A DNA stretch of 62,974 nucleotides, filler included. It is 10 parts of 10 records of this genome, joined end to end, with 100 filler letters (N's around TTAATTAATTAA, not from the genome) between each part and the next. Parts side by side here need not be neighbours in the genome. Positions count along the whole stretch, not along the records: positions 45,190 to 51,283 come from SRR15195285_1015; 9 more parts are not named here. One strand, given 5' to 3'. Below, in pieces: positions 23,230-57,354 of the stretch. Below the pieces are notes generated by a model. The model did no database searches. It was not told the DNA's origin and saw only the letters and a list, made by a program, of their open reading frames with translations. A program made the translations under genes and the position numbers. Numbering within the stretch: the first letter of the stretch is position 1; each line of letters starts with the position of its first letter.

Positions 23230-23230
23230 G

Positions 23231-23330
23231 NNNNNNNNNNNNNNNNNNNNNNNNNNNNNNNNNNNNNNNNNNNNTTAATTAATTAANNNNNNNNNNNNNN
23301 NNNNNNNNNNNNNNNNNNNNNNNNNNNNNN
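23231..23330. other. Artificial contig linker
   Basis: N44-TTAATTAATTAA-N44. Confidence 0.99.
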
Positions 23331-23753
23331 CAGGATGGTCGGTATCCCAGCGGTGAGTGTGCACTGTATCCGTCGAATCCGGGAAGCTAGGAAACCAGTG
23401 TCAGATTTGGCATCGTCAATCTGGGCACTCCGCGAGCGGCCGAGCGCCGGCGACCGCAGCACGCCGGCGCCGGCGGCGTGGAGAGGATCAGATCGGCGTC
23501 GCCGGATGGAGATCGCGCCCGTCGACGTCCCCTCGCTCCTCTTAGCTTGTCCACTACACGTGTCCGGATAGCCTGCATCTACTATCATTTCCGCCATTCG
23601 TGCCGCGCTGCGACGGAACGTGAAGGGAGACCGAGAGGGAGACACACGCACTACGTACGTAGCGCGACGACCCTGCGCAGGCCACGCAGTGTACACGTGC
23701 CGCGGCTGGGCGGAGAACGTCAAAAGGTGCACGCTGCTGGCACGTGTCACGCA

Positions 23754-27167: not shown

Positions 27168-30100
27168 TCATAGCACTAGAACAGCATTCACGGGGCCGAA
27201 CGACGTGTCCAACTCTGGCGTGACCTGCCACGATGCTTGATCGCCTATAGCCTCGGTCTTGGTCACTCTTCCAACGACGTCCAACACCCCGGGCCCAAGA
27301 TAGCTCATGATTGTAGAACCGTCTCGATGAGCGTGTGTTGTCATCCGTGCAGAATCCCCCATCTCCGTCACCATGTCGCCACTACGCTCGTTCTCCGCAG
27401 ACACGATAAAGTATCTCTCGCCGGCTACAAGCCGCACAAGAGGCACGAAGGCCGACGTGTAGCACATCCCGAGAACATCTCCATCACAAGCCATATCAAC
27501 TGACACATTTGTTTGGGCGAGCATAGACACACCATCGGATTCACGAAAGACCTGCATAGCGTGGATTTGGCTGTTGCCACGGGTCTTGTACCGCCCAAGC
27601 TGCACAATGGTGACTGGTACCTTGGCCTCCACAACCATACCAGCCCAGCCAGTAAAATTAATCACTTTCTGCCCAGGCAAACAATCGAAGAGAAAGCTGC
27701 CCAGCGGCATTGCTGCTCCACTCCGTCGAGTCAGCGCGATGTCGTCAAATACGGCATTAACCCAAGACGAGCCAAAGCCCGCGACGCCGCTCCCCAGAGT
27801 CACTTGTACAGAAGCTGCACCAAAAAGATTCTTTCCGTCTATCCAAGCAGTTAGTTCATAACCTAAAAACTGCAGCTCAACAGTCTGCCATGTCGAAGCT
27901 TCAATTGTTGCTGCAGCTTTGCCAGATGCAACCACACTACCAGTGCTGCTGTCCGCAGCTTCAGTAAGAAACCAGGTCCCAGATCGGGCAACAGTAAGGC
28001 AGACACCGAAAGGCACAGTCAGATTACCACTCTCGGTTCTCACAGTAGGGCTGCCTCCGCCTGGTGGCCAAACCGGAACTCGCCCACACACGACAATTGC
28101 ATCCGACTCGGACCTCGTGTCGAGGCCGCCTAACAGCTTCGCCCGGACGGAAAATGCATAGTTCATCCAATTTGTCCCAGAGGGAAGGCTAGTGAAGGGA
28201 CTTCTGTGAATGTTGGTGAAGTGACTCCACGCGTTGCGACCAGGATTTGTCGGGACGCTTTGCAAGACGACGTGCCCTTCACTTGCTTCCTCTGAAGGAG
28301 CAAAATCTTCAGCAGGAGCGACTTCGAACGCTCCAAATACGTCTGATAACATGGCACCTGGCGCTCCCACTGGCTGATCATCGAAGTCGGCAGACCAGGG
28401 CAAGGGGAACTGTTTGCGTGGAGGATTCCAAGATACATCAGCATGCTTCCCAGCTGCCGTTAGTGTGGTCAGAGTTGTCACAGAGCGACCAGGCAAGGTC
28501 AGGTTTACAGTGCCTCGAACGCCTATGCGGATGCTCTCGACTTGCTGGAAGTAGTGGCTCTTAACAGTCTCCCATCGCGCAAGCGTCTGGCCTCCATTTT
28601 CAAAACCTTCTCCCAGCGACAAGTCAACCTTGACACTTTTGTTCGCTGTGTGTACGAAAACCAGAGTTAAGTTTCCTGGAACCACAGTCGCATCCAGAGC
28701 TGCTTCTTTTGACATGTCCGTCAGGGCAGCCCACACAGTGTCGCAGCGCTCGCTGTCCTCTGAATCACACCGCTCGCCTGTCCCAGCACCCCCGAGGAAA
28801 TGCCAGCCAGGACGTGTAAACTGCGTGAAGTGAGCCTGTGACCAGAACGCAGCCCCTAAGCCGAAGTGACCTGACCATGGCTCTACAAACTGAGAATGGC
28901 CATGATTCTGCCGTCCATAATTCCACGTGAAAGAGTGCGTGATCGGGCAGAGAATCGTCGCTGTGGCACCAGCTCTGATATAATTCGTAATGAATATCCG
29001 CGGCCACCCCAGCCCGGCGCCGTACTTGTTCTGTTCGGTTGGCTCCCATTGAGGCAGTGGCCCGTCGATAAGATTCTGCTCCGAGTTCCACAGGTGCAGA
29101 CCTCGCGGATTGATAGTCGTAATGTTTTGCCAGCCTGGTGCACCAGCAGTGCCCTCTACGTCGTGACCGTGGATACCGATCATGTCCACAGCACCAGTTA
29201 GCTGCTTGTCACGCTCCAACGCAACCGTAATATCGCCACTGCCGAACTCCTGGCAGTCCAAGCAACCTTTGGAAGATCCATCGGGCACCACAATTTGCGT
29301 CTCGCCCATGCCTTGATCGTTCAGAGCCAAGCGCAGCTCTTTGATGTAGCTACGGGTCCAAGGACTTTCGTTCCAAATCCCTGCATAGCCGATTGACCGT
29401 GTTTTCCAGACGTGATTGTCAATGTTCTGTTACACTCAATGTTCACCATATGGTGCCAACTGTGTTGGCAGCTGTTTGTGATGTTCGACTTACCTACGTA
29501 GTCGAATGAAATTCCGTGCTCTGCCTTTGCCCCTGCGAGATAATCTGTGTGATACTTTACACCTTGTGAACTCAGAACGCCATCTGTCGAGCCATTGACA
29601 TTACCCACCCAATGTGGCAGCCCCCAGTACGTAGGGCAGAAGCCAAACGGTAGCGGGTCAGCATTCACATCAACGTGGAGGCAGAGCTACAAATGTGCCG
29701 TCAAGCCTCGCGAACCTCAGGGCATAGAGCTTGATGTCAGGCTGTCGCCTCTTAGCTTCTTTGATCAGCCACGGCAAATATATGCCACGGTTGAAGCTCA
29801 CGCTCGCTGGGTCAGCTGTGTGCTGAAAACTCGGACCGCTGCCATAGCTTGAGTCACTGTCCCCCTCGATCTCCACCTGGCCCGATCAAAATAGCACGTT
29901 GATCTTCAGATTGGGCGTGTGAGAAGGCTCAGGAAATCGGCAGTACATTAATTTACCCACCTTCAGGATGTGGTAAAACGCTCCTCCAGCACTGGGATCG
30001 AACAGCAGATCAAGGATTTTTCCGCGCGTTGGCTCCGGATATTCGTACAAGAGCCTGGCGCCACCGACCGCCGCAAGCCCACCTATCCCGTCGAACCGCA

Positions 30101-38484: not shown

Positions 38485-39105
38485 GTGAATTGTGTATTCT
38501 TTTCAAGCGCTGCCGTCAGGGCTTGAGTGACGAGACCCCTTCCCTCTTCATCGAAACCCCATTGAGATCCAACCAAGGATATATCTAAAAGGCTGCTTGT
38601 GATTGAGCGAAGCCGTAGCAAGATCAAATGTACGTTCGTGGAGACATGCTTTAAAAAGCATCTGCTCGATGCAGTCATGGCTCATGGAACCCGCACGCGT
38701 GCCCATGTGTAGAGTTGTAAACTGCTGGCTCTGAGTACAGTGTACGAGTACAGTAAATTCATGAATCGTGCGAAGGATTGCTTTGCCTCGGGCTCTCGCT
38801 CACAGCAGCGTACTCGAGTACTGGGTAGATCATTGGTTAGTCTGTCAAGTGCATCCTGAGTTTGTTTTTTCAATGAACCCACAACCCAGCCGTATTTTGT
38901 AAATTCACATGAATTTTAAGGACGATCCGTTGGTACTCATGAGAGAATCATTAGCCAGTTCCATACCGCTACCAGCAAGATCGCGAGCGCGCCCCCGCGC
39001 GCTCGCTCGCGGACGCGGCGCGCGCGTTACACGCGACTACGTACGGACTAGGCGGCGGTCGCACGGACACGCACGCGACACCGACGTGCAGCGTCAAAGA
39101 TTGGG

Positions 39106-42100
39106 ATGAGTCGCACTTCAAAACACTCCCTAGTGTTTCTGTTTCTATTGATGACGCATATTGCCACCGCACAAGCACCCTTGCCTGGTCCTACCGATCT
39201 TTCTTCGGATTCTCCCTTGTGCGGTGATTCATTGTGCTGGACAGCGTCATCTGACGACGCTGACGGTGCCACGAGCGATGGACATGGGACGATACAGGTG
39301 TCCGCGCTTGTGCCTGGGGAGATTCACGACGATCTAATGCGAAGCGAGGTCATCAAGGACATCTGGCATGGCAACGGCAGCACCCTTGCCGACGCATCCT
39401 GGGTCGGCTGGCGCACCTGGCGATTCTCCCGCGAATTCGACAGCCCTGCACAAGGTCCAAGTTACTGGCGCCGCTGGCTTCGGTTCGAGGGCGTCCAGTA
39501 CAACTGCACTGTCCAGCTAAACTCTGTTACTCTTGGGAACCACATTGGTCAGTTTGAACCGTTTGAGTACGATGTTACCCAGCTGCTGCATCCCGCTGGC
39601 TCGGGTCAGGCCAACCGGCTGGTGGTCATCACTCACCCCCTGTTGGACAACGTTACAGAGTTCGAACGGCAGGTTTGGACCAAGACGTCGGATCGGCGAG
39701 ATTACACTGGACAGGTCTCGTGCTGGCTAAATCGTCACGCCCCAAAGTGGATGGGACGGACCATCTATGGCTGGGACTTTGTTCCAGCAGTTTACAGTGC
39801 TGGGATCGCCAATCACGTGTCGTTGCACACAACTGCTGCTTTGGTGGTAGATAGCATAGGACCCGCCACACTACAAGAAGCATTACCGGCAGTACTGCGA
39901 GTGCAAGCGTTGAGCATTCTTCCACGGCTGTCTCCGCCCTACTCTTCCGCCCGGCTCGAGTTGGGCCTGGATGTTTATCTATATGGTAGTGCGTGGCCTG
40001 CACGCACATCCCTCGCCGTTAGTTTTCGGGTTTGCGCTCCCACTGGTGCAGTATCGCCTCCAGTCATGACCACTGTGTTTAACGTCTCAGCTACGACAGG
40101 GCATCCGCACCTCTTGCGTACAAATCTCACAATTGTGAAGCCTGCACTATGGTTTCCAAATGGTTACGGTGCTCAGCCGATCTACAATGCAACTGCAGTA
40201 GTCTCGGGTGCCGTGGGTGGCTCGAAACTCATCCAGCTTGACAGAATCTCAGAAACATTTGGTATTCGCGAACTAACCATCGGCAATAATCCTCATATTG
40301 CTACTGGATGGTCGTACACGCAGTACGGGCCTGAGCACACGGAAAGACTGCCGTGGGGGTGGGGGTCCTGGCAAGCGGCAGTGGCCCCACCAATCGCACC
40401 CAATGCAACCAGATGGCAGATTCGCATAAATGGGCTGCCTGTATTCGCGCGCGGTGGGAACTGGATTCCACGAGATCAACTGTTTGGGCGTGGCATCCGT
40501 AATCGCAGCCGTACCACCAAAATTCTGCTGGCTGCCAAGCACGCAGGCATCACATGGATGCGAATCTGGGGTGGAGGCTTGATCGAGGACCAGCACTTCT
40601 ATCGAGAGTGCGACCGGCTTGGCCTGATGCTTTTGCAGGAATTCCCTCACGCTGGCTGCGCGCCTGGCGGCCCCGGTGACTCGTTTCCTGACTATGCAAC
40701 ACGCCTTTCACTGGACGACACCCAGACGAGGATGGCGTTGAAACAGCTGGTGAATCACCCGTCCATCATCCGGTACAATTATGCGAACGAGTTCTATCTC
40801 AACTCCTCAGTGTCACCGTTCATTGCCCAATTTCTGTCTACTGTCCGATCAATCGACGATTCACGCCCTGTGCACGAAGCCAATCCAACTTGTGTAGCAA
40901 TACGGCATGGGCCGTATACATTCAGTGAGATAAACTATGCAACATATGGGTTGGAATGTGGAAACGGAACGGCAGTGGAGCCTTGGATGGCAGGCGGCGT
41001 GGCGGGCTGTGCTGGACAGGGCGAAAACGGCGGCAATCCATTCGAATGGGATGAGTTCGGCGCGACAGGTCTGTCTGACGTCGACACGCTGCGAGCAGTC
41101 ATTCCAGCAGCTGAGCTTGGATCTGGATGGCAGACCGGTGCGACGCCATCATGGGCATTTCATCGACTCGTGGAGTGGTAAGCTTCAATACGAGTAATTA
41201 TCATAAATTGAATGCAGCTGGACGTGACTAATACTCAATGGCATCACTGTGACGTGCATTGACATTAGGGGCAACGTAGGTGGCTATCGACCAGTGTTCT
41301 CGACGCACGGAGTGGCTGCGTCGACGCTGCAGGAGGAAGTTCGGTGGTCACAATTTATGCAGGTGTGGTCTTACCGCGTCCACTGCACAGGAACCATTTG
41401 TCTTGAGCACGTTCGATGACTATGTCGTCTCTGTCCAATGGTTGTCACTCTGTGTTTCGCAGGCTGAGGGCCTTCGGTTCTCGTTTCAGGCCCACCGTCG
41501 TGCGAAGCCACACCGATCAGCTGCAAATTCCTGGACATTCAACGTAAGTCTTGGATTCTCTACAACACTTGTCTTCGTTAGACCACGTTTTTGGGATAAC
41601 AAGGACTTCGTGAAGAAGTCCTTCGTGAAGAAGTGCTGCTGCTTTCCCTGTGTCTTGTTCCAGGAACCTTGGCCAAATGCTGCGCACGGGTCGGTCTTGA
41701 CATATAGTGGTGTCCCAAAGATGGCCTACTACTACACACGTGCAGCGATGGCGATGGTTGACATCTCCATGCTGTACCATGGACTGACCGTCAAGTCTGG
41801 CGTTCCAATTGCGAACAGCAGTGTGTCAGTTTGGATGGATAGCGAGCTCGCAGTGCGTCCGAATTCAATTATTTTGGTGTCCTTTTGCAACTTTAACCGC
41901 TCTTATATCGTGTTACATGTACAGGTCCCCCTTTCTGACTGCGAGGTGACACTGGAGTACATCGACTCGTCAGCAGAAGGTGAGCGTGCACTGCTGAGTG
42001 TAGAGCGATACAAGTCACAGCAGCCATTGCCACCAGGGGCTGGGCGAAGGATTCCGTTCAACTCAGGTATAGGCGAGTTCGTGCCACCCGATGCCATGGC

Positions 42101-42896
42101 TGGCCGATCAGTGCTACTGGTGCGGGCGTCTGTGCGGTGCGCAAAGCCTAGTGCGCACGCAACAAATGTCTACGCGTTCGGAGTTGTCAGCATGACAGAT
42201 CAACATGAACTCAGCACTGATCATGGCGCTGAAGCTGCGGATTCTTCGGCGTTCCCAATGCCTGCGACAGCTTCGTACCGAAAGATTGTAGGATTGATTC
42301 CGGTGGATCGCACCAACTACACCGATTTCTTACAGGGACATGCGGTATGTGAGGCGACTTGCACCAACAGAAGTGCCTGTGTGGGCTTCACTGCCGATCA
42401 GACCCCAAGTAATTGCTGGCTATACGACTCGGTCACGGCTCTGGTACCATCGGCACCGGACGCGTTCTATCTCAAGCCAGGGGTGCCAGAGCCCACGCAC
42501 GTGCCCGTACCTCCTCCGCCAGTGCCTCCACTCTTAGCACTAGCCAATGCATCTACGACGAGTCTGCAGGTGCAGGTGCTTGCTACGGAACTGCCAAACT
42601 TTGCCCTCCAACACAGCAACTTATCTCAGTCGTCGATCGAAAGGGAAACGATCGCCTTTACGCTGACCAACCTCGGGGAACGCGTTGCACTGTTTGTAAG
42701 ACTTGCAATGCGCGAGACACTGGCTGGGCCAGAGGTTCCGTTTGCTGTCTTCAGCAACAACTTCGTGTGTTTGCTGCCCGGGGAGTCTTACAACGTGACG
42801 GGAATATTTCTTGTTGCCAACGATGAAAGACAGAGGCAGAATGCAGCGATGGTGTGTGCAGAGGCATGGAATGCAGTTGAAGTCTGCGTCAGCTAG
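39106..42896 (+). CDS. GH2 beta-mannosidase-like enzyme, secreted, with inserted PAN/Apple module, multi-exon
   Basis: Motifs VPGEIHDDL, LRFEGV, YGWDF, LWFPNGYGAQPIY, INGLPVFARGGNWIP, MRIWGGG..E..FY..CD.LG, NHPSI...ANE (acid/base), DEFG (nucleophile), FN|EPWP and SNNFVCLLPGES. Confidence 0.92.
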
Positions 42897-45089: not shown

Positions 45090-45189
45090 NNNNNNNNNNN
45101 NNNNNNNNNNNNNNNNNNNNNNNNNNNNNNNNNTTAATTAATTAANNNNNNNNNNNNNNNNNNNNNNNNNNNNNNNNNNNNNNNNNNNN
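45090..45189. other. Artificial contig linker
   Basis: N44-TTAATTAATTAA-N44. Confidence 0.99.
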
Positions 45190-45654
45190 AATGAGAAATT
45201 AGATCTACCGGGGGTCTGATTAACTGGTCAAAATTGGGGACCATTGCAGCTCATATTCATATAGAAATAGGACTTCAGACGGCATTTTAATCCGAGTTTC
45301 CCATTCATATATAAGCCGCGCCACCACCAGCCCAGCCCGCCATTATTCATATACAACCACACAGCAATGAATACGAGTTTATATCAAGCGGAGCCCATGG
45401 ACCGGATACCGCAGACGGTAAAGGGCGGGGGGCGCTGGCAGGCTGGCTGCAGGCTGGCAGGAGGCTGTGCCTTTGGAGGTGCGCGCTCGCTGAGGTGCGG
45501 TAGGGTTGGGTGTGGTAGGGTTGGGTAGGGGGAGGAAGCGCGGGCAGGTCTCGATACAGGCGGGAGGGGTTGAGGGTGCTGGGAGAGGGAGGTGGCTGGG
45601 CGGGACGGTGGTTCGGCGCGTTTGAACAGCGGGGAGGGCTGGGTTTGCGGAGAG

Positions 45655-48600
45655 ATGGGGAAGAAGAACCGGAAGAAGGGCGGCGATGAGGACTACGACC
45701 TGCCGGAGTTGCCTGACGTAAGCTCCCGCCCTGGCCCCGTGCGGCTGGCTATCTATCTGATAGACCATCTCTAGAACCTGCGCCGCTGCGGCTTGCGAAA
45801 CTCGACCTCTCTCACCGACCGGCCCTTGATTGTTTCGGCAGGATGATGATGGCGCCAGTGCGCCGCAGCCGGCAGCGGACGAGGACTTCGGGAAGAAGAA
45901 GAAGGGGAAGAAGGGGAAAAAGGGGAAGCAGCAAGACGACGAGCCAGCAGATGAGCCAGAGCCAGTGATTGACGAGGACTTCGGCAAGAAGAACAAGAAG
46001 AAGGGCAAGAAAGGCCGCCGCGGCCAGGACGACGATTATGACCTGCCCGACCTGGACGAGCCCGAGCCCGCCCCCGCGCCGGCAAACGATGCCGAGGAGG
46101 GCGCCGGGATGTCCAAAACGGAGCTGAAGCGGCTGAAGCGTGAGCAGAAGAAGGCGGCAAAAAGCGCCAAAAAGGGCGGGGACTCGCCCGCCGCAGCTCG
46201 CAGCAGCTTCCACGACGGGGGGGACGGGACGTATGACGCCGAAGACGAGCCTGAAGCGGCACCGGCCAGCAGCCCGACCACTGCGCGGCGCACACAGGAC
46301 GATGACAATGGCGTGGACGAGGAGACTGGTTATAGGGACATGACAGTCACTGGCGTGCTGTCCTCCGACATGAACAGCAAGGACGTGGCTTTCAAGAGCT
46401 TTAGTGTCGTGTTCCAGGGGAAGCCGCTTGTCAAAGACACTCGGCTGGAGCTCAACAACGGCAGGCACTACGGGTTGCTGGGCCCGAATGGCGTCGGCAA
46501 ATCGACGCTACTCAGTGCCATCGGGCAGCGAGAGGTGGCGATTCCTGCCCATATCGACGTGTATCACCTGATCAAGGAGGTGGAGCCTAGCGACGAGACC
46601 CCGATGCAAATTGTGTCGTCCTGCGATTCGGAACGCGACGAGCTGCAAGAAGAGGCAGACAGAATGGTCGACGCAGGCGAAGGAATTGACGACGGGCGGC
46701 TGGAAGAGCTCTATGAGCGCCTGGAGCTGCTTGATGTGTCGCTCGTAGAGAAGCGCGCCGGAGAGATCTTAAACGGGCTGGGGTTCACGCCGGAAACGAT
46801 GAAAAAACCCGCAAAAGCGTTCTCTGGCGGTTGGCGCATGCGCATTTCCCTCGCACGGGCCTTGTTCGTTTCGCCGCAAGTTCTGTTGCTGGATGAGCCA
46901 ACCAACCACCTTGACATGGAGTCGTGCCTGTGGCTCGAAGAACGATTGTCAGGTTACCGAAATACACTGGTCATCATCTCTCACTCGCAGGACTTTCTGA
47001 ATGGAGTCTGCGACTCCATTATCTACATGTTCAACTGCCGGTTGCGGTACTACAACGGAAATTACGACTCGTTCGTAAAGAATCACGCCATCGACGACGA
47101 GGCGCAACAAAAGAAATACGAGGCAGAGCAGAAGAAGCTTGAGGACATGCGCCTTTTTATCGAGCGGAATTCTTCTGGCAACCAAGCGAAGCAAGCTCAG
47201 TCACGCCAGAAGGAGATGGACAAAATGGTCGCAGCAGGCCTGACAGAGGCGGTCGTACCAGAGGCCGAGGTGACATTTAAGTTTGAAGATTGTGGCAAGC
47301 TACCGCCGCCAGTCATGCAATTTGACAAGGTCAGTTTCCACTACCCGAAGACGCCTGACCGCCTAATCTACGACGAGATTGAGCTGGGTATCGACTGTGA
47401 CTCTCGGGTAGCTCTTGTGGGGCCGAATGGTGCGGGTAAGTCGACCCTTGTCAAATTGATGAAGGGAGAACTCACACCTACGGAAGGGGCAATCAGGAAA
47501 CACCGGCACCTGAAAATAGCAGCTTTTACACAACACTCCGCTGAGATGCTGGACGAGAATAGCTCGGCTCTTGCCTGGATGATCAAGCAGTTTCCAGTGG
47601 AGTATGACGATGGAGACAGAGACGCACGCAAGGCTGCGGGTCAGCACGAGAACAGGATGCGAGGCAGACTAGCTGCGTTCGGTATTACGGGCAAAGAATC
47701 TACGTCTCCCATGCGGTACCTTTCAGATGGGCAGAAGTCACGTATCTGCTTCGCGCACGCTGCCACTTGCCGATCACACATCATCCTGCTGGACGAGCCT
47801 ACTAACCACCTCGACATCGCGTCGATTGATGCCTTAGCCGATGCTCTTCGAAAATGGGATGGTGGTGTCGTGCTTGTTTCGCACGACTTCCGTCTGATCG
47901 GACAGGTTGCACAGGATATTTGGGAGTGCCGCGATCAGGCGGTTATTCCTTGGAAGTCAGATATCCTAGCGTTCAAACAATACTTCAGAGAAAAGTACAC
48001 GCCGAAGGATCCGAACGCTAAGCTTGTGAATCGTGAGGGCGGTAACTCCGGGATGGACGTGGATGGGGAGGACGAAGTGGTAGACATCCGTGTGGACGCA
48101 TGGAAGGAGTCTGCAGGGAAGCTGGTATATGGCGATGGCCTTGACCAGGAAAAGAAGGGCGCCGCGAAGACCGAGGCCAAGAGAAAGAAGAAGGGGAAGG
48201 GTGGGCGTGGTGAAAGCTTGGACCCAATTACCTTGCACCGGCAAGAGCTGACTGCAAAGCTCGCCGATGGGGTGAGCAGCGCAGAGGAATGGTGGATAGA
48301 GACGGTCGAAACGAACCAACTAGGCTGCGACGTAGGAGTTGGCGTCCCGTTCACCGTCTGCTTGGCCCAGGCTTGGGACGCAGGCGAACCATGGGCACCG
48401 AAGGTCGAGGAGGTGGCACCATTGTTCAAGAGGCTCTGCAACTCCACGGAAGGGCAGCAGCAAATGCTCAGCACTTTGTGCGCCCACTTGCGCTCGGTTG
48501 CGTTGGACTACATGCCGGAGGCCCTGCACGCGCTCTACGACTACGACCTCCTAGATGAAGATGTGCTGGTGCGTAGCCTGTGCATGCGTTCAATTCGTCG

Positions 48601-48783
48601 CGCCGTTCGTTGTTAACGGGATGCCATGTGTTGCTGCGATGTCTGCCTGCCTGGTGCTCGACCCTCTCGCAGCTGGACTGGTATGGGGGAGGCGGCAAGG
48701 CAGATGGTGATGCGAAGAAGGCCTCCGCGCCGTTCTTTGAGTGGTTGGAGAACGCTGACGCGGAAATGGATGAGGCTGACTAG
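45655..48783 (+). CDS. ABCF2: ABC-F family ATPase (ABCF2/Arb1-like) with C-terminal W2 (eIF5/eIF2B-epsilon/eIF4G-type) domain
   Basis: Two ATPase domains (GPNGVGKST / FSGGWRMR / LLLDEPTNHLD and GPNGAGKST / LSDGQKSR / LLDEPTNHLD) and no TM helices. ABCF2-type VTGVLSS, REVAIP.HIDVYHL and CGKLPPPVMQF. Introns at 45718-45841 and 48569-48672. Confidence 0.9.
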
Positions 48784-48825
48784 AGCATCCCCCTAGCCCG
48801 TCAAAAAATTACACGCGGTGTGTGT

Positions 48826-51264
48826 TTACATTATCTGCAATATTACCTGCTGCAGCGGCATCACTGTCAAGCTCGGCCACGTGGCAAGCTGCACCACTGT
48901 GGTCCCCTTCCTCATGTTCAGCGCACATCCCGAGGTCCGGGACAGCATTTGATGCGTCGCGTTAACGGCAAGCCGCACAGTCCCTTGCGCGTACGCGATG
49001 CCACGCAGCGTCATGTGCGTAACGTTCATCGGAGGTAGTGAGGGGTGCAGAGCTAAACCAGCTGGAGAATAGTGAATGCCGCCGTAACCAAACACGATAT
49101 TCTCGAGGAATCCACCTGCGCCGGTCAGGAAGTTCAGATTGCCCGTCGCGTTGTGTGCGGCGACCTTCGGGTTCGTTTCAGTCCAAATGTTGTACGGGGG
49201 CAGTTGATGGTCGAACGCGAATGCGAGCTGTGCTTCAGCCGCTGTGCGTTCGCCGGCGAACAACATAGCGATAGCATAAGAACTATCGCCTGTATAGAAT
49301 CCCTTCGTGTCGCTCCCAGAGGACCGTGCGGCGTAGTAACGCAGATCGCTCTGCGCGATCGAAGCATCCATCGGCATATGCAAGGGCCATTGCAGTAGCG
49401 CTACGTCGGCCTGGTTGATGTCTTGACCATGGTACCCATCATACTGAGGGTGAATAGAGACCAACTGGCCTGCTGGGCATCCTGAAGTGGAGGCATTCTG
49501 AAAGGGCAGGCAGTACTTCTGCACAGGCACATACATGGACTCTGACTTGGCTGTCCACTCGGCAAGAGAAGGTGGGCTGAGGCCAAGAAGACCGGCAGCC
49601 TCTGCAGCAAATGCCATGACATACCCAGCAGCAACATTCGTGTAGGTGTTGCTATCTGTAATGTAACTATGTTCATCAGGTCCAATTACTTGTAGCATCG
49701 TCCAATTTCGGCTTGGATGGGTAGAGCGATTGACACGCGACGCGAAGAAGTCAGCTGTCGCAGAGACAACTGGCCATGCAATCTCCCTGAGAAATGTCTC
49801 ATTCCGTCCAGTTCGATAGTAATTTAGACGAAAATATAAGGCAACGTCAGCAGAGATGTGAATCTCGTGCATCCAATAGCAGCCAACCCTCGGTTTTTTT
49901 GCATCCATCTTCGTCTTCATCGCTATAGAAACATTCCCACAACTGCGCTCGAAGCCGGTGACGCCAGACTGCCACGGCCAATACGCACCTGCATACCCAT
50001 TCATGCGCGCAATCGACTTTGCAGCATCTAGCCGCTCTGTCCGATACTGGAGCAGAGCATTGGCGATCGGTGCATTGATGGCCGCAAAAAGAGGTCCATC
50101 CATTACACCGTCCGACCAGAACATCATGCCTCGATACGCCTCACTGCCAATGCCACCCTCGCTGACTCCCTTGGGCCAATCCTCCCTGACCGAGCAGAGG
50201 AGGTAGTATAGACTCGAATTGACGTAGGCACTCAACTTCGGATTGCCGGCCAGCTCGATACCGCCACCACTGCCGCTGCTGCCATCGTTCTGCAGCAAAC
50301 CGTATGCATCAGCCCACGCGCGCCGGTGGGACGCATCGAGCGCGGCAGCAGTGCTGCTTGCGTGCTGCGCTAGTTCGGCGGCAGCGAGATCCATGGCGGT
50401 GGAATTTGTGACTCCGGACTCCAGCGTCGTGCGCACAACAGCAAGGAACATCACTGGCGTGCTGCTTGGGCCGACGATCACATTCCATGGCGCTGGCGGT
50501 GGTGATGGTGTGTGGTCGCTAGCTGCGACGCTTGCATTCAGGGGCCCCTGCGGAATGTTACTAGCAATGGCCACCACTGTCGGCGCCCGGCGCGGAAAGC
50601 TTGCGTCCGCCGGCTGCTCGGGATCGATCACTTCGTAGACGCCAGGTGCGCGCTCGATCATTCCGCTGGGAGACTTCGCACAGCCACTCCACGCAATGCT
50701 GCAGTTTGCCGTCGCGTTGAGTGCGCGCAGTTCCCACACCAACAGTGACCGGTGTTGGCGATGCGCGTAGCGCCGGCTCTCCAACACCGCGTCAGCGCCA
50801 CACCCGAGCGGGAGCGGCCAGCGCTCCAGGTACACTCCAGCGCTGACATCAAGAGCGGCGCCGCCGTACGATAGGTTGGCGGACGGCTCGGCCGCCAGCG
50901 GATTCGGCAGCCCTGAGCGCGAGTCTGTGTGGCTGCCGCCGCTGTACAGCCCCGCGAGGTGCAGTGCACCAGCCGAGCCACCTGCGCCTCCTGCACAGCC
51001 CACGTCGCCACCAATGAAGCCGTTCTCCGTCGATGGCAACATGCTACTCGGAGGCGGCTCGGGCGCGAAGAGCAGGTTGGAGCTCGCGACACCTTCCGCC
51101 CAGTCGGCGGGCACTGGCACGCCGCCGGCCGCGCCGGCCGCCATGCCGACGAGCAGCAGCGTCTGCATCGCCTGCATCCTCGCCTGCATCCTCGCCTGCA
51201 TCGCCTGCATCCTGATCCTCGCCTGCATCGTCGCCGCAGGGAGCACGCTTGAGGCTTGGACCAT
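48826..51264 (-). CDS. GH65 hydrolase (PGGHG / acid-trehalase-like), secreted, intronless
   Basis: Motifs SSLYYLL.S, G.S.GG....Y.G..FW, GAYWPWQSG.TG, EIHISADV, VIGPDE (general acid), INQADV.LL.WPL, IWTE and NFLTGAGGFL. Confidence 0.88.
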   Translation of the reverse strand: MVQASSVLPAATMQARIRMQAMQARMQARMQAMQTLLLVGMAAGAAGGVPVPADWAEGVASSNLLFAPEPPPSSMLPSTENGFIGGDVGCAGGAGGSAGALHLAGLYSGGSHTDSRSGLPNPLAAEPSANLSYGGAALDVSAGVYLERWPLPLGCGADAVLESRRYAHRQHRSLLVWELRALNATANCSIAWSGCAKSPSGMIERAPGVYEVIDPEQPADASFPRRAPTVVAIASNIPQGPLNASVAASDHTPSPPPAPWNVIVGPSSTPVMFLAVVRTTLESGVTNSTAMDLAAAELAQHASSTAAALDASHRRAWADAYGLLQNDGSSGSGGGIELAGNPKLSAYVNSSLYYLLCSVREDWPKGVSEGGIGSEAYRGMMFWSDGVMDGPLFAAINAPIANALLQYRTERLDAAKSIARMNGYAGAYWPWQSGVTGFERSCGNVSIAMKTKMDAKKPRVGCYWMHEIHISADVALYFRLNYYRTGRNETFLREIAWPVVSATADFFASRVNRSTHPSRNWTMLQVIGPDEHSYITDSNTYTNVAAGYVMAFAAEAAGLLGLSPPSLAEWTAKSESMYVPVQKYCLPFQNASTSGCPAGQLVSIHPQYDGYHGQDINQADVALLQWPLHMPMDASIAQSDLRYYAARSSGSDTKGFYTGDSSYAIAMLFAGERTAAEAQLAFAFDHQLPPYNIWTETNPKVAAHNATGNLNFLTGAGGFLENIVFGYGGIHYSPAGLALHPSLPPMNVTHMTLRGIAYAQGTVRLAVNATHQMLSRTSGCALNMRKGTTVVQLATWPSLTVMPLQQVILQIM
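51165..51229. repeat. Coding tandem repeat of CGCCTGCAT(CCT) units giving MQA(R) repeats
   Basis: MQARIRMQAMQARMQARMQAMQ lies ahead of the GH65 hydrophobic leader. Confidence 0.85.
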
Positions 51265-51283
51265 GGAGAACTCACTGAGAAAT

Positions 51284-51383
51284 NNNNNNNNNNNNNNNNN
51301 NNNNNNNNNNNNNNNNNNNNNNNNNNNTTAATTAATTAANNNNNNNNNNNNNNNNNNNNNNNNNNNNNNNNNNNNNNNNNNNN
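51284..51383. other. Artificial contig linker
   Basis: N44-TTAATTAATTAA-N44. Confidence 0.99.
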
Positions 51384-51898: not shown

Positions 51899-54800
51899 TC
51901 AAGGCTGCGGCTCGGGTTGCGCACCGTCAACACTCCGGTGACGTGGCGGCGTTCTGTCCTTCCGCGTAGTTGCGGCGTTGCGTTGGACCGCAGCTGTACC
52001 CTCTTTGGCGTCGGCACCGGCGTGGATTCGCCGCGGCAGCGGTGGTGGTGCTTGTGGCGGCGGCTGCTGCCTCTGCATCAATTCTAAGAGCGCTCCGACC
52101 TCAGCCAGTTTTGCGTTCAGCTCGTCTTGTGCCGCATCTTCTTCCTCTTCACGGCGCGACTGCTCCAGCGCCTTGTCTAGCGACGCGCGAGTTAGGGGGT
52201 CGAGTAGCACACCGGAAGCACTATAAGGATCGCCAAGAATCGAGCCGCGTCGTCGGTCGATGAAGTCATTGTATGAAATGAGCAGGTAGTTCATCGCAAT
52301 CTCCTCCTCCACCTGCGAATAATGCCGTCGCATTGGAATCCTCAGCCCAATAAAATAGCTTCGCAAAAACGTTTGCTTGAAAGTACGATGGAACCACGAG
52401 CGCAAGCGTGCCACAGGTCTTTCTGATTTAACCTTGAAGACGAAGTATTGGAGCTGGTAACTGAAGTCAGCCAGGCAGATCGAGTGCTGCTCGCCCATAA
52501 ACTCGCCCATCTGGAGTTTGAGCGAGCGCTTGAATGCGGTCGGCATCCTCGCCTGCGCCTTGATGCACTTCGCCTCGAGGAAATCTTCTACATCGTCTTC
52601 GACGGAAGAGTGAAAGTACATATGCCGAGTGATGAAGTGTATCGGGAAAATCCAACGGAGAAAGCTCTTGAGGTAAGTGGAAGAACATAGCCGTGAGATC
52701 GACCGCCAGACAATCCGTCTTTGAACTTCCGGTGGGATCTTGAGCTCAAATTCGGCCGATTCCTGCACTTCGAGTAGTGGCGTGTGATCATGGCATAGTT
52801 TGATCCGCTGCGCCTTCTTCATCAATCGGTTCATGGCTGCACTGACATTCGGGTGAGCGACGTCGTAATTGGGCACCAATAAATCCAGCGCAACCTTGTC
52901 GTGATCCCGGAGGTACATCATCGTTTCGTGTGTCTTAACGGCCTGTTTCGTGTGTTTCGACGAGCCGCATTTCACACATTGCTTGCTAGCTTGCTCTTCA
53001 ATAGCGTCCTTTGCTTCCTGGTTGCATGTTTTAATGTTCTCCTCTTCGTCTGCCATCTCCATGATGATTGTGTTGATATCTTCCTCGATGATATGCCTCT
53101 GCTCTTCTTTTTCCCTTTGACCTAGCTGCGAGTATTGTCGCTCGAGGCCAGCGAGCACTACCTCGGCAACTACCCTTATGACAGCATCTTTGTGAATGAC
53201 ATGCGTATCGGGATTGTCTTTGTAGCCAGCATCGTCAGCTTCGTCCAATGAACCACTGATGGCTGTACGCTTCACGCACTCTACACAAGCCTCTTTAAGT
53301 CTTTCGCCAAGATGACCCTGATTCGCTGCCAGTGGCCGGAACTTCTGCCACGAATCCACGTCGACGACATCAAATATCATGATGCGCTCCACACCCTCCA
53401 GCTCGCCCCGCTGCTTGTGAAGCCGTTGCAGTTTTCCTTCGACCTGTGCGATCTTCTCCGCGTATTCCCGCTTGGTCTTGCACGGCTCGCAACTCGTTCT
53501 GGAGCAGCCAGGACATAACGGCGTCCAAGTGTGATCGACGTCACCTTTGCCGACAGCACCATTGATGCTGCTATGCAGACGCTGCACTTGCTCATCTATG
53601 GCACTGTGGATGACGCTTTGGCGTTTCCTTTCGAATTCCGTGTGAAGATCGTGTAGCTCTTCACGCACCATTTCGATCTCGCGACTCATCTGCTGCTTAT
53701 CCTCTCGGGAAGCACGACGCACTGGTTTAAAACGAACGAATTTCAACACAATCTCACCCATCATCCCACCCTCCGCTGGCGTTTTCAGTATGATCTTATC
53801 GCCTGGTACTACGTCACCCTGTCTCGAGTCCTGCCCTTGAGTGTCCACCTCGTCAGTACCTTTAAGCTGTTCGAGATATCGGATGCCTCTGAACTGTGCA
53901 AGTGAGCTCGCCGCCATCCACAGGTCAAGGGTTGGAGCCTCGTGCTCTCGGGGAATGTCAGCGTGTGGGCTGTCTTCGTTGATGGACTGAGGATCAGCAG
54001 CGAAGCCCGTGAAAATTCGTTGGTCGGGTGTGCTCGCCGACCGCGCCACTTGCTCCATCGCTTTCAGGGCCGAACTGGTCGTTGACACCACCGCTGTGGT
54101 CACCGTCTTTTTCAGTGCGCCTAACGTTGTGTCCTGTGCACCTTCTGATACCTTCGCCTGCGAGCGAATGTGTTCTCTTGATCGAGAAGAGATGAGATGA
54201 GACACGGATGAGGTACGCGGACTTGGGTCAGCAGTTTGCGTATCGTTAGTAGAGGCAACTACACCATGCTCGTGCGATTCAACTCTATAGCGTATCTGCA
54301 CTCTACTCGAGCGGTGCAGTATGAACGGATAGGACTGCGTCTCGCCTAAAGCCAGAACCTCCTTTGTCTCGGCATCCCACTTGCGCGGCCCATATCCGAC
54401 CGGTACGGGTTTGACTGTCCAAGTTCCACGCAGCGCCTGCAATGCCTCTCCGATTGCTCCAGTTGCATTCTCTTTCGCTGGTTCGTTCCAAAGCCCCTTT
54501 CCTCGATAAAAGTCCTCATACTTGTCGTTGCCGGAAAACGTATTTTGTATCCACGTGTAGTCCACCTCGTACTTTCGCAAGGTGTCCCGCGCCTCCTCAT
54601 AAAAGTCTGTGACGATGGCAATCATCAAATTCATGCCAAGAATAGCGACAAGGCCGACGAACAGCAGGAAGATACCGGGCGTCATTGACGCGTCTCCACG
54701 CTTGAGCTCATTGTATTCAATGTCGTCGACTCCAGCCGCAAGCCGCACGAGTTGAAACATGCTTGATGGAATGTTCTGGAAGCCTTTGGAGTGACGTCCC

Positions 54801-56884
54801 CATAGCAACGTGGTACACAGTGCAAACGCGAAGATCACCCAAAACATCACCGCAGTATATGCTAGCAGCTGCCCTGCGGCAAGCCGAAGGGTATCCCACA
54901 GCAGGGAGGTAGACCTGAAGATGCGCATGTACTTGAAAAACTTGAATACAACCACGAGACAGACTATCCCCAGCACTTTGATCATCATCGTATAGGTGCC
55001 ACGAAGCGGTAGGCCATCGTTGAACAGATACTGTGTGTTGATTCGCAGGTCGACCTCAGACGGAATTTCACTGCTGAAAATGCCTAGATCGTAGTCTTCG
55101 TTGGTGGTGTTCACCTGATAATGAAGTAGAAAACGGTCTTCCTCCTCCATAAACGCCCTAATTTTGTCGCAAAACACGAAAACTACGTAGATGTACACAA
55201 ACTCGAACACATTCCAGCCAGATCGGATCCACTGCCAGAACCCAACGGTGTTCAGCTTCTGAATTTCCTGCATGATCATCCAAACTGGCAGAACAATAAT
55301 TGCGTAGGTCCAGATCCAACCTGAGCTACCGCTGCCCTCTGTCTCAGATAAGCCGATGCCAAGGAAGTGCAATGGCCTCAGTTGCATCGATGTAATTCTG
55401 CTGTACGACTTTACGTGGCCGGAGGGTGAGAAGACGAAGTTGACGTCAACAGCGACGATGACAGTGGGGTCGTAATTGCTGCCCATGGTTGACGAGAAAA
55501 GGCCTTCCCTGCCCGCACTGAACGTGTTGCCATTCAAGATGATGAATTGGAAAGTCAGAGAACGCGTGTACTGGTCGACAAACTGCAGCTCCCTTAGCGC
55601 CTTCAGTTGCCTAACAAACGTGCTGCTGTTTCCTGGCAGGTCGATATGAAAACCTCCAGCGCCAAAGCTGCGAAACTTTGCCCAGAGGCTTGAGGTCTCT
55701 GTCGGGTCAGATTTGACGCTGCTGCGATACGCATTCGGAGGGTTTGCAAGCAGTGTGTGTGTCTGCAGATTCACAGGACACGCCCACTCAAACTTTGAGC
55801 CAGGATCGTTCTCAATGGCCTGCTTCTGATCCTCGGGGTTCTTAAAACAGCCCGATTGTGAACAGCAGAAGAAACCATCGACCTGACTGCTTGCGATGTT
55901 GGCCACTGCATGGTCGTTGTACCACTCTGGAAACGCGTCGATGAACGAGCTCCCGTTGAGAGTTTCTAACGGCTTGCTCAAATTGAGAAAATCCGTTGCG
56001 TTGTGCTCAAACCAGTCACTCGTGCACCTGACGCCACGATCGGTCAGCTGCTCGCCCATATCTGGTCCGAAGGAGCTACTCAGCTTTTGCTTGCAATTGG
56101 TTCGCTCCTCCCTTGAGCGCTCCTGGCGGAGCCGCACCGGCCCCAGCAGCCAGTTAGTGCCGAGCAGCGCAGCCAAGTTTCCGTCCGCCTCGTCATCGAC
56201 CAGCAGCCCAGCGGACAGGGGTCCTTCTGCCCACTGCCACATCTCTTCCGCCGTCATGATATCGTCAAAGTTCTTGAAGATGTGCGTCGTCTCCGCATCA
56301 AACTCTTCACCCAGCAGCAAGTCACTCACAGCTTCCTGGTGCCGCTGCATCACAGCCGGTGGCGGAAGATGCGCAAGCAAATAGGTGATCATGTAGACGT
56401 ACACTGCGTAAAACAGCAGGTTCAGGATCTTTGCCGCGCTCCGGTGCGCCATAAAGTGGTGGTTGTAGACTTTCCACATATTGACGACGTACTGGGCCTT
56501 GTACTCGCGCATTGGGTTCCTCAAGGGGCGCAGCCTGTCTTTGCTGAACAGTAAGTGGTGTGATTTAGCATCAGCGAAGGCTCTGGAGACTGTCATTTTC
56601 GGGATCTGCTGCCGCACGTGAGCCCGCAGGGCTTCTAACGCCGGCGAAAGCATACCCGCTGCGTCCGCCTCGTCCGCGTCACCCTCGCCGCCCGCGCCGT
56701 CAAAGCTGTCGCCATCGGCAAGTGCAGCCACGACATCGACACCTTTGCTGGGTGGCGTCCCTCCCGGGCGGGACCAGCCACGAACCATGGCGGCATGTCC
56801 CGGCTGCCCCCCGCGGTCTGGGACTTGCACCGTCAAACTTGGCCGAGTCGACTCCCGAGGTTTCGAAGGCACCGCCTCGCTCAT
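51899..56884 (-). CDS. Polycystin-2-like (TRPP) cation channel, intronless, long C-terminal tail
   Basis: Motifs F.DI.T.EEMWQWAEGPL, NWLLGPVRLRQ.R, FGAGGF, FVDQYTR, SGWNVFE, KFFKY, pore region LVRLAAGVDDIEYNEL, and S6 MNLMIAIVTDFYEE. Confidence 0.9.
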   Translation of the reverse strand: MSEAVPSKPRESTRPSLTVQVPDRGGQPGHAAMVRGWSRPGGTPPSKGVDVVAALADGDSFDGAGGEGDADEADAAGMLSPALEALRAHVRQQIPKMTVSRAFADAKSHHLLFSKDRLRPLRNPMREYKAQYVVNMWKVYNHHFMAHRSAAKILNLLFYAVYVYMITYLLAHLPPPAVMQRHQEAVSDLLLGEEFDAETTHIFKNFDDIMTAEEMWQWAEGPLSAGLLVDDEADGNLAALLGTNWLLGPVRLRQERSREERTNCKQKLSSSFGPDMGEQLTDRGVRCTSDWFEHNATDFLNLSKPLETLNGSSFIDAFPEWYNDHAVANIASSQVDGFFCCSQSGCFKNPEDQKQAIENDPGSKFEWACPVNLQTHTLLANPPNAYRSSVKSDPTETSSLWAKFRSFGAGGFHIDLPGNSSTFVRQLKALRELQFVDQYTRSLTFQFIILNGNTFSAGREGLFSSTMGSNYDPTVIVAVDVNFVFSPSGHVKSYSRITSMQLRPLHFLGIGLSETEGSGSSGWIWTYAIIVLPVWMIMQEIQKLNTVGFWQWIRSGWNVFEFVYIYVVFVFCDKIRAFMEEEDRFLLHYQVNTTNEDYDLGIFSSEIPSEVDLRINTQYLFNDGLPLRGTYTMMIKVLGIVCLVVVFKFFKYMRIFRSTSLLWDTLRLAAGQLLAYTAVMFWVIFAFALCTTLLWGRHSKGFQNIPSSMFQLVRLAAGVDDIEYNELKRGDASMTPGIFLLFVGLVAILGMNLMIAIVTDFYEEARDTLRKYEVDYTWIQNTFSGNDKYEDFYRGKGLWNEPAKENATGAIGEALQALRGTWTVKPVPVGYGPRKWDAETKEVLALGETQSYPFILHRSSRVQIRYRVESHEHGVVASTNDTQTADPSPRTSSVSHLISSRSREHIRSQAKVSEGAQDTTLGALKKTVTTAVVSTTSSALKAMEQVARSASTPDQRIFTGFAADPQSINEDSPHADIPREHEAPTLDLWMAASSLAQFRGIRYLEQLKGTDEVDTQGQDSRQGDVVPGDKIILKTPAEGGMMGEIVLKFVRFKPVRRASREDKQQMSREIEMVREELHDLHTEFERKRQSVIHSAIDEQVQRLHSSINGAVGKGDVDHTWTPLCPGCSRTSCEPCKTKREYAEKIAQVEGKLQRLHKQRGELEGVERIMIFDVVDVDSWQKFRPLAANQGHLGERLKEACVECVKRTAISGSLDEADDAGYKDNPDTHVIHKDAVIRVVAEVVLAGLERQYSQLGQREKEEQRHIIEEDINTIIMEMADEEENIKTCNQEAKDAIEEQASKQCVKCGSSKHTKQAVKTHETMMYLRDHDKVALDLLVPNYDVAHPNVSAAMNRLMKKAQRIKLCHDHTPLLEVQESAEFELKIPPEVQRRIVWRSISRLCSSTYLKSFLRWIFPIHFITRHMYFHSSVEDDVEDFLEAKCIKAQARMPTAFKRSLKLQMGEFMGEQHSICLADFSYQLQYFVFKVKSERPVARLRSWFHRTFKQTFLRSYFIGLRIPMRRHYSQVEEEIAMNYLLISYNDFIDRRRGSILGDPYSASGVLLDPLTRASLDKALEQSRREEEEDAAQDELNAKLAEVGALLELMQRQQPPPQAPPPLPRRIHAGADAKEGTAAVQRNAATTRKDRTPPRHRSVDGAQPEPQP

Positions 56885-57354
56885 TATGTACCGGTATCGT
56901 GCCAATCAACACAGGCCTCTCAACCACGCCGCTTCCCCCTCTGCGCGACGCAGCCCGGGCAGCTGCCGCCCTCGGCCCTGCAGCGAGCCAGGGCGCTGTG
57001 ATGGTAGGAAGGGATCACTGCCCCTGTACTAGTAGGGCCCTGTGGGAAGGGATCACGGCCGCTGGCCAGCAGCAGGACCAGCTGGACGGCAGCGCCACCG
57101 GCCTCGCTCGGGCAGCAGGCACGCGGGTGCAATAGCGATTACGGTAGCGTAATACCAATAGCCACTATCCCAGATATATCGAATATATCAAGCATGTGAT
57201 ACACTGTACCGAGGTACTAGTAGTAGTGTACGGTAAATGATTCGGAATATAATGCGCATGCGCTCACCGTCGACGGCGCGGCCGTGCGTGCGGCGGCCGG
57301 CCTTGCGGTACTGACCTAGAGATGTTGAGGTATGGCTGGGTCCGGCTGCATGCA

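Follow-up and report, generated by a model that had tools for sequence, protein, structure and literature searches.

A predicted ABCF2-type ATPase with a C-terminal W2 domain in uncultured marine protists

ABC-F proteins bind the ribosomal E site and, to our knowledge, the cellular role of the ABCF2/Arb1 kind is still poorly defined. The gene considered here comes from an uncultured marine protist and occupies positions 45655-48783 (+ strand, three exons) of the window, by which we mean the whole stretch of DNA analysed, 62,974 nucleotides (nt) made of joined pieces of ten records. An earlier note, made by a model from the letters of this DNA, had read the gene as an ABCF2 ATPase fused to a W2 domain of the eIF5 type. 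The locus thus raises the question of whether such a fusion is real and, if it is, what a ribosome-acting ATPase would do with a domain otherwise carried by translation initiation factors. We consider it very probable that the encoded protein is an ABCF2-type ATPase with a W2 domain. The carriers of the fusion are uncultured marine protists, and it is known from sequence alone.

The ATPase core and the C-terminal domain

The 966-residue protein runs from a tail rich in lysine, aspartate and glutamate, through two ABC domains and a disordered basic linker of about 80 residues, to an acidic, all-helical domain of about 150 residues. Its central part has what defines an ABC-F protein, namely tandem ABC domains (Pfam ABC_tran PF00005, 155 bits in two stretches) and a PtIM-type linker between them (ABC_tran_Xtn PF12848, 71.1 bits against a cut-off of 25.9), and Pfam lists no membrane family. 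Walker A, the signature, Walker B with its catalytic glutamate and the H-loop are intact in both domains, and they read GPNGVGKST, FSGGWRMR, LLLDEPTNHLD and SHSQDF in the first domain (ABC1) and GPNGAGKST, LSDGQKSR, ILLDEPTNHLD and SHDFRL in the second (ABC2). Because every Walker, signature and H-loop motif is present in both domains, the ATPase is likely to be active.

Among solved chains in the PDB, the core matched yeast Arb1 best (6r84_A, 503.8 bits over exon-2 residues 186-712), and after it came human ABCF1 (384.7 bits), E. coli YheS (317.5 bits) and eEF3/New1 (about 208 bits). The Arb1 chain is one that we take to be part of a 60S quality-control complex. In a collection of 5.8 billion proteins, the nearest sequences outside the W2-bearing clade were 54-58% identical over approximately 100% of the core, and their source names, where given, were ABCF subfamily F member 2 or plant ABC transporter F family member 1. 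We therefore accept the ATPase as one of Arb1/ABCF2 type, an assignment that goes by scores and by the names of the nearest relatives rather than by a tree. The earlier note had made the same assignment, and the lead of Arb1 over ABCF1 together with the ABCF2-named neighbours agrees with it.

The protein departs from its family after ABC2. Yeast Arb1, human ABCF2 and plant ABCF1 share with it the two ABC domains, the PtIM-type linker and a lysine-rich N-terminal tail (N-tail), and the identity to plant and protist proteins of this type is that given above. However, a plant protein of 592 residues (P0078) stops about 10 residues after ABC2, and the alignment with the Arb1 chain reaches residue 517 of 519, just as the earlier note had held that canonical ABCF2 ends soon after this domain. 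The protein encoded in the window adds 233 residues, comprising linker and W2 domain. The note had put about 200 residues of this addition in the same exon, and the exon-2 translation has 197 past residue 712. A HEAT-repeat domain on an ABC-F ATPase is not in itself without precedent, as eEF3, New1 and eEF3L have one (PMC6723617), but theirs is large, N-terminal and not of the W2 kind, they carry a chromo insertion, and they match the present protein with only the 208 bits mentioned.

The extension matches the Pfam W2 family (PF02020) in two pieces, the end of exon 2 over profile positions 9-40 (18.9 bits, E 1.6e-3) and exon 3 over positions 42-78 (24.7 bits, E 2.5e-5), each below the 30-bit cut-off. 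As these are neighbouring parts of the profile, the splice brings together two adjoining halves of a single model. Among relatives whose frame continues over the junction, P0016 (45.0 bits) and P0006 (32.0 bits) are above the cut-off, and P0013, which has a 25-residue insertion, is slightly under it with 29.3 bits.

A profile of the extension family only (A5, 11 rows, ABC part excluded) retrieved 21 PDB sequences at E<=10, ten of them at E<=0.001, and 20 of the 21 were eIF5, eIF2B-epsilon or eIF4G1. The best match was the C-terminal domain (CTD) of human eIF5 (2iu1_A, E 2.3e-9, 40.4 bits), followed by yeast eIF2B-epsilon (E 7.6e-5) and eIF4G1 (E 1.5e-4). In the alignment, ...DEDVL.eW... pairs with ...EEEVIISW... 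of eIF5 and PFFEWLENAEEE pairs with PFIKWLKEAEEE, exon 3 being aligned with ...VIISWSE...PFIKWLKEAEEE. Through the profile, the two acidic/aromatic boxes (AA-boxes), LLDEDVL-LDW (split by intron 2 at the hyphen) and PFFEWLENADAEMDEAD, correspond to eIF5 LLEEEVIISWSE and PFIKWLKEAEEE. Both tryptophans that give the W2 domain its name are present and are encoded by exon 3 (tryptophans and boxes as defined in the parts of PMC9177959 and PMC12439599 drawn on here). The match to eIF5 was reached only by the family profile, which includes exon 3; phmmer with the last 191 residues of exon 2 alone (P0002) gave no PDB match at E<=10.

The predicted fold points in the same direction. An AlphaFold2 model of P0002, made from 14 aligned rows and without the 36 last residues contributed by exon 3, has a block-mean predicted local distance difference test score (pLDDT) of 88-94 over residues 81-190, and six helices are predicted (residues 77-89, 93-107, 111-128, 133-145, 151-168 and 170-182). 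Rows 1-7 of the Foldseek search against the PDB are all W2-bearing chains (E 0.019-0.29), with the eIF2B-epsilon CTD on top (3jui, E 0.019, TM 0.56 on the target) and eIF2B complexes, eIF4GI (1ug3) and DAP5 (3d3m) among the others. VIA-align, run over 48,161 chains, had W2 domains in 8 of its top ten rows, and Z was 14.1 for the eIF4GI W2 region, 13.0 for 3jui, 12.3 for DAP5, 12.1 for yeast eIF2B-epsilon (1paq) and 12.0 for eIF5 (2iu1; root-mean-square deviation 3.2 over 113 residues, 20% identity). In an ESM Atlas feature search with the exon-2 part, which we treat as a lead only, 26 of 30 named look-alike clusters were W2 (top score 0.91).

As five lines agree (the Pfam halves, the relatives above the cut-off, the A5 profile, the fold model with its searches and the ESM Atlas), the identification of the C-terminal module as a W2 HEAT domain, by sequence closest to the eIF5 CTD, is well supported. 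The W2 domain with two AA-boxes proposed in the earlier note is thereby confirmed by the relatives' scores, the eIF5 match and the fold matches. Several points have to be set against this picture of the protein. Of the sequences scored, only relatives formally pass the W2 cut-off, and the window's own halves each stay under 30 bits. None of 500 Foldseek rows reached E<=0.001, and helical repeats alone can attain a VIA-align Z of about 13 through their arrangement, as the tool warns. Support for the splice that completes the domain is comparative only, from related sequences. Finally, the core is placed by scores and not by a tree, and ABCF6, loosely defined in Murina et al. (PMC6723617), is another possible home for it.

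Compared with the known W2 proteins, the domain shares with the eIF5 CTD (W2/HEAT3; PDB 2iu1, 2ful and 9f79) the helical fold, both AA-boxes, both tryptophans and the C-terminal position behind a disordered linker, whereas the N-terminal GAP domain and zinc finger of eIF5 are replaced here by an ABC-F ATPase. With the eIF2B-epsilon CTD it has in common the W2 fold (3jui, the top Foldseek row and the second of the Z values above). With 5MP (BZW1-2) it would have in common, if the function proposed below holds, that a protein other than eIF5 is able to occupy eIF2-beta; in both eIF2B-epsilon and 5MP the remainder of the protein is unlike. The 5MP HEAT family (PF25504) was not reported in Pfam scans of the window and the relatives, and no solved 5MP chain occurs among the Foldseek, VIA-align and A5 results, so that the closeness to eIF5 is relative to the other solved W2 chains.

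Gene model and splicing

The exons (Table 1), joined by script, give a coding sequence of 2901 nt and 966 codons with one stop, the terminal one. Exon 2 ends in ...ALHALYDYDLLDEDVL and exon 3 translates as LDWYGGGGKADGDAKKASAPFFEWLENADAEMDEAD, and all sequence statements of the earlier note, quoted peptide ends included, were reproduced from the translation. The frame of exon 2 runs unbroken through the N-tail, both ABC domains, the linker and the six W2 helices. Its first in-frame ATG does not come before residue 90, and the residues upstream of it are conserved in two relatives (P0005 and P0006). Exon 1 and intron 1 were modelled because this conserved 5' part of exon 2 is without an in-frame ATG, the splice sites are good and the DEDYDLPEL motif recurs in exon 2.

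Table 1. Parts of the ABCF2-W2 gene, in positions of the window.
Feature	Position	Strand	Remarks
Exon 1	45655..45717	+	21 codons, MGKKNRKKGGDEDYDLPELPD; ATG at 45655, first lysine patch, acidic/aromatic DEDYDLPEL motif
Intron 1	45718..45841	+	124 nt, GTAAGC...CGGCAG; modelled from sequence alone
Exon 2	45842..48568	+	single open frame, 909 codons
Remainder of N-tail	45842..46396	+	two DEDFG and lysine/glycine patches, DDDYDLPDL motif, K/A-rich stretch
ABCF core	46397..47977	+	ABC1, inter-domain linker ABC_tran_Xtn 47033-47233, ABC2 (best Pfam stretch 47372-47806)
C-terminal linker	47978..48214	+	predicted disordered; pLDDT <50 for P0002 residues 1-4 and 6-73
W2 domain, first six helices	48215..48568	+	to first half of AA-box 1 (...LYDYDLLDEDVL)
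Intron 2	48569..48672	+	104 nt, GTGCGT...TCGCAG; GT-AG
Exon 3	48673..48783	+	TAG stop at 48781-48783
W2 domain end, in exon 3	48673..48783	+	rest of AA-box 1 (LDW), AA-box 2 (PFFEWLENADAEMDEAD), both W2 tryptophans

The clean GT-AG intron that the earlier note had seen before the last exon holds up as well. The length of intron 2 is no multiple of 3, so that reading through it would shift the frame, it contains an in-frame stop at 48614-48616, and its flanks join the adjacent W2 halves. Two metagenome contigs encoding an 82% identical protein (L001 and L002) have an intron at the identical codon boundary, 128 nt long, starting with GTGCGA and ending with GGACAG, with exon 3 in another frame. 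In P0006 and P0154, 45 residues (135 nt) and 30 residues (90 nt), respectively, were read through in frame by the gene caller before the conserved exon 3, and these stretches start with V and end with Q, in line with what the ends of a GT...CAG intron predict. Between the window and L001, identity is 79% at the end of exon 2 (102/129) and 78% in exon 3 (84/108); it is 49% in intron 2 (51/104, with 24 further columns of gaps) and, beyond the stop, 44% (17/39). Third codon positions account for 17 of the 27 mismatches in exon 2 and for 16 of the 24 in exon 3. The two halves of the domain are also found without interruption at this point, the AA-boxes being contiguous in three more distant relatives (P0013, P0016 and P0159), and exon 3 is conserved in L001, P0006, P0154, P0013 and P0159.

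Other in-frame insertions occur elsewhere in the W2 domain, of 25 residues before AA-box 1 in P0013 and of about 50 residues after the third helix in P0159. They are probably further introns read through by the gene caller, and intron positions would therefore differ between sub-clades. Owing to its read-through insertion, the P0159 model has a mean pLDDT of 51, and it was excluded from the fold search. Sampling of 47900-48900 matched 21 sequencing runs; 20 contain part of the region, 19 are recorded as RNA and 4 have at least half of the sampled words, across 15 studies, and we draw no inference on expression or splicing from these numbers.

It has to be asked at this point whether the fusion could be an artefact, arising from a chimeric assembly, from a wrong gene model that merged ABCF2 with a neighbouring W2 gene, or from chance resemblance to W2. 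The window is indeed made of joined pieces and contains 792 N in total. The nearest join (45090-45189, N runs around the six-frame stop linker TTAATTAATTAA) is 465 nt upstream of the ATG, for which reason the promoter and the 5' untranslated region may be incomplete. The sub-threshold Pfam halves and the empty phmmer search with P0002 could likewise be read in favor of chance resemblance. However, 45190-48783 contains no N, and a single open frame covers ABC2, linker and six W2 helices. The identical layout recurs in independent contigs from several sources, and four independent lines (Pfam, ESM Atlas, fold searches and the A5 profile) agree on W2. A chimeric gene model was thus rejected on account of the single open frame, the absence of N from the gene and the recurring layout, and we regard an artefact of any of these kinds as extremely improbable.

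Relatives, distribution and surroundings

To find carriers of the extension, all 1.84 billion cluster representatives were searched with a profile of its exon-2 part (A1), which matched 12 proteins at E<=0.001, 10 of them members of the family. The other two (P0015 and P0018) are repeat proteins with multi-stretch matches and were judged spurious by eye. A word-indexed search of the 5.8 billion proteins gave four matches, one of them the window's own protein. The members of the family clusters are fragments from marine metagenome and metatranscriptome assemblies, with the exception of P0159, which has the EukProt label Picozoa sp. COSAG01. In the extension, the sub-clade that includes the window shows 55-84% identity and a second sub-clade (P0009, P0011, P0016, P0159 and P0017) shows 33-47%. 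In every sequence that extends farther upstream than the linker, an ABC-F C-terminus leads into it (...FKKYFR.KY.P...KLVNREGGNSGMD), as seen in P0005, P0006, P0007, P0141, P0154, P0011, P0019, L001, L002 and, partly, P0009/P0158; extension identity among the continuous relatives P0005, P0006, P0007, P0141, P0154, P0011 and L001 is 55-84%.

Two further searches add little. When homologues were sought with A5 at "longer" lengths, the single protein recovered from 8000 crowded candidates was that of the window itself, which is weak evidence on distribution, and an ESM Atlas search with the whole fusion protein returned only ordinary ABC-F clusters and is uninformative about fused forms. With ten relatives among 1.84 billion cluster representatives, the ABCF-W2 fusion is, by these searches, rare and, within a small set of marine protists not in culture, conserved, the searches being blind to independent ABCF-W2 fusions that carry an unrelated W2 sequence. 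The earlier note had counted on an architecture that is not widespread and knew of no description of it, and both points stand. Literature searches combining ABC-F and W2 terms found, among the papers listed, no published ABC-F ATPase with a W2 domain, and the fusion, which combines two known kinds, is apparently undescribed. In the 2019 ABCF survey of Murina et al., the main text has no occurrence of "eIF5", and the architecture section mentions no HEAT or W2 module on ABCF1-7 and describes C-terminal extensions as charged and coiled (PMC6723617).

Outside the W2 clade, the core's closest relatives are of interest for what they carry instead. Six proteins (P0072-P0077), 56-58% identical to the core, leave ABC2 with the same ...YFR(D/E)KYAPK... 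exit and also have a long C-terminal extension, but this consists of a charged coiled region and TPR repeats, and none has W2. P0072 also starts with a ubiquitin domain, and P0073 is labelled SAG31_NODE... in EukProt. Proteins of this ABCF2 branch seem to gather various adaptor domains at the C-terminus. Another group of relatives, about 50 clusters (P0020-P0071), consists of proteins of approximately 1300 residues with four ABC domains, in which an N-terminal ABC-F of another type precedes an ABCF2-type half with 47-50% identity to the core in the window. They are tandem fusions or merged gene calls, and one of them, P0024, represents 302 member sequences.

Around the gene, the window contains unusually many glycoside hydrolase frames, at 23391-25193, 27168-29429, 39052-42896 and 48826-51282 (rhamnosidase-like, GH59, GH2 with a glucosaminidase Ig domain, and GH65), an EF-hand channel gene at 20305-23274 and a polycystin-like channel gene at 51899-56905. 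An N run lies at the far end of the GH65 frame, at about 51283-51327. Most of these genes are single long frames, which suggests a gene-dense, intron-poor heterotroph. The GC content of the window is 56.4%. We found no functional link between the ABCF2-W2 gene and its neighbours (GH65, the polycystin-like channel, the other glycoside hydrolases, PWWP/zf-CW and WD40).

Possible partners of the W2 domain

What could a W2 domain do on this ATPase? The AA-boxes of the W2 domains of eIF5, eIF2B-epsilon and 5MP, together with adjacent hydrophobic surfaces, bind each of the three lysine-box (K-box) segments of eIF2-beta, and the W2 domains of 5MP and eIF2B-epsilon compete for them (PMC12439599). Docking on eIF2-beta and a possible coupling of elongation or quality control to initiation, both put forward in the earlier note, are proposed here from what these W2 domains do. 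The twin-ABC core would bind the ribosomal E site, as do Arb1 and other ABCFs, and would hydrolyze ATP, both properties being assumed from family membership. Tethered by about 80 flexible residues, the W2 domain would grip a lysine-box partner through its two AA-boxes, and the likeliest partner would be the N-terminal tail of eIF2-beta, to which the W2 domains of eIF5, eIF2B-epsilon and 5MP bind in common. In this manner, initiation complexes with eIF2 on board would recruit or retain the ATPase, and it could then move into the E site as the subunits join or immediately afterwards.

An ABCF2-type protein would thereby gain a link to eIF2 comparable to that of ABCF1/ABC50, an ABC-F ATPase that is physically linked to eIF2 through its N-terminal domain and promotes initiation (PMC6723617, citing Paytubi 2008). 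The link of ABCF1 is made by a charged N-terminal region and not by W2, and the core described here is 119 bits closer to Arb1. We see the mechanism as a whole as evenly balanced between right and wrong; the link of the fusion protein to eIF2, taken by itself, is a serious possibility that falls somewhat short of probable. Two points in particular speak against eIF2-beta as the partner. W2 domains are not all eIF2-beta binders, that of eIF4G binding Mnk kinases, and the domain could be occupied by lysine patches within the protein itself.

These lysine patches are found at both ends of the core. The N-tail (206 residues, 39 K+R and 51 D+E) has, with exon 1 included, three lysine patches between 45655 and 46100, each adjoining DEDFG or D(E/D)DYDLP(E/D)L. 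They recall the three K-box segments of eIF2-beta in their number and in the composition of their flanks, although no Pfam family was reported for the N-tail and its search against the PDB gave one chance match (E 1.4), with no detectable similarity to eIF2-beta or any solved chain. In the C-terminal linker, the motifs KLVNREGGNSGMD and GDGLD.E.KG are invariant or nearly so across the alignments of relatives. Directly before the W2 helices lies a basic patch, KRKKKGKGGRGE (48179-48214), of the invariant form KR(K/S)KKGKG.RGE, present in 10 of the 10 relatives that cover the region and in both sub-clades. The linker also contains, at 48080-48120, the stretch ...IRVDAWKESAG..., with a short low-confidence helix over DAWKESA (P0002 residues 35-41). 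It bears a faint resemblance to the DWEAR motif of the eIF5 linker, which contacts the eIF5 CTD, and is conserved in the sub-clade of the window and absent from the Picozoa-labelled one.

One possibility is that the protein regulates itself. Its acidic W2 domain would bind the lysine patches of the N-tail or KRKKKGKGGRGE, either within one molecule or from one molecule to another, and would serve as a switch for autoinhibition or for the release of tails that otherwise touch rRNA or partners. The charge of the domain (9 K+R and 30 D+E over 152 residues, net -21), the flanks of the N-tail patches and the presence of the basic patch in all covering relatives fit this. The surroundings of the K-boxes in eIF2-beta are likewise rich in acidic and hydrophobic residues, the flanks aiding binding, and an intramolecular contact between linker motif and CTD has been reported for eIF5 (PMC12439599). 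However, ABCF1 and ABCF2 proteins without a W2 domain generally have lysine-rich N-tails as well (PMC6723617, in the part drawn on; also plant P0078), the basic patch would equally fit a nuclear localization signal or an rRNA contact, and the N-tail lacks the similarity to eIF2-beta just mentioned. We consider self-regulation unlikely as the full explanation, and it would be compatible with docking on eIF2-beta if eIF2-beta competes with the patches.

A different partner could also be envisaged, such as eIF3c, eIF1 or eIF1A, which are also partners of the eIF5 CTD, a kinase (as for the W2 domain of eIF4G) or a lysine-rich ribosomal or ribosome-biogenesis protein; in the last case the role would be Arb1-like, on pre-60S or stalled 60S particles and not in initiation. 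The surfaces with which the eIF5 CTD contacts eIF1, eIF1A and possibly eIF3c overlap its site for eIF2-beta (PMC12439599), and Arb1, the solved protein closest to the core, is described as a ribosome-biogenesis factor (PMC6723617). Moreover, because the closest W2-less relatives carry TPR modules and, in P0072, an N-terminal ubiquitin, the C-terminus of the ABCF2 branch seems to be a general site for partner-recruiting domains. On the other hand, the extension is closer in sequence to the eIF5 CTD than to eIF4G1 (E 2.3e-9 against 1.5e-4) and has kept the elements linked with the binding of K-boxes, namely the two AA-boxes and the two tryptophans. We hold a partner other than eIF2-beta to be unlikely, in the same measure as self-regulation.

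Docking on eIF2-beta, if it takes place, could be taken one step further. As a kind of Rosetta stone, the fusion might reveal that ABCF2/Arb1 ATPases generally work with the eIF2/eIF5 network at the point where initiation hands over to elongation, the present protein being an ATP-gated mimic of eIF5. Its W2 domain would then compete with eIF5 and eIF2B for the eIF2-beta tail, and would stay masked by the protein's own eIF2-beta-like lysine boxes for as long as the ABC core has not closed on a new 80S ribosome at its E site. We think this extension of the proposal quite improbable; were it true, the energy state of the cell would set start-codon stringency or eIF2 recycling.

In the part drawn on here, a 2022 review of HEAT domains assigns a C-terminal W2 domain to five families only, eIF4G, DAP5, eIF5, eIF2B-epsilon and BZW/5MP, all of them initiation factors or regulators (PMC9177959). 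A ribosome-binding ATPase is thus an unexpected sixth context for W2, and the fusion offers a compact natural construct for studying how an E-site ATPase communicates with initiation factors. With TPR and ubiquitin modules in the nearest relatives, protists appear to have re-equipped the C-terminus of ABCF2 with varied adaptor domains, and the conserved natural fusion described here hints that an ATPase of the ABCF2/Arb1 type meets eIF2 or another lysine-box protein.

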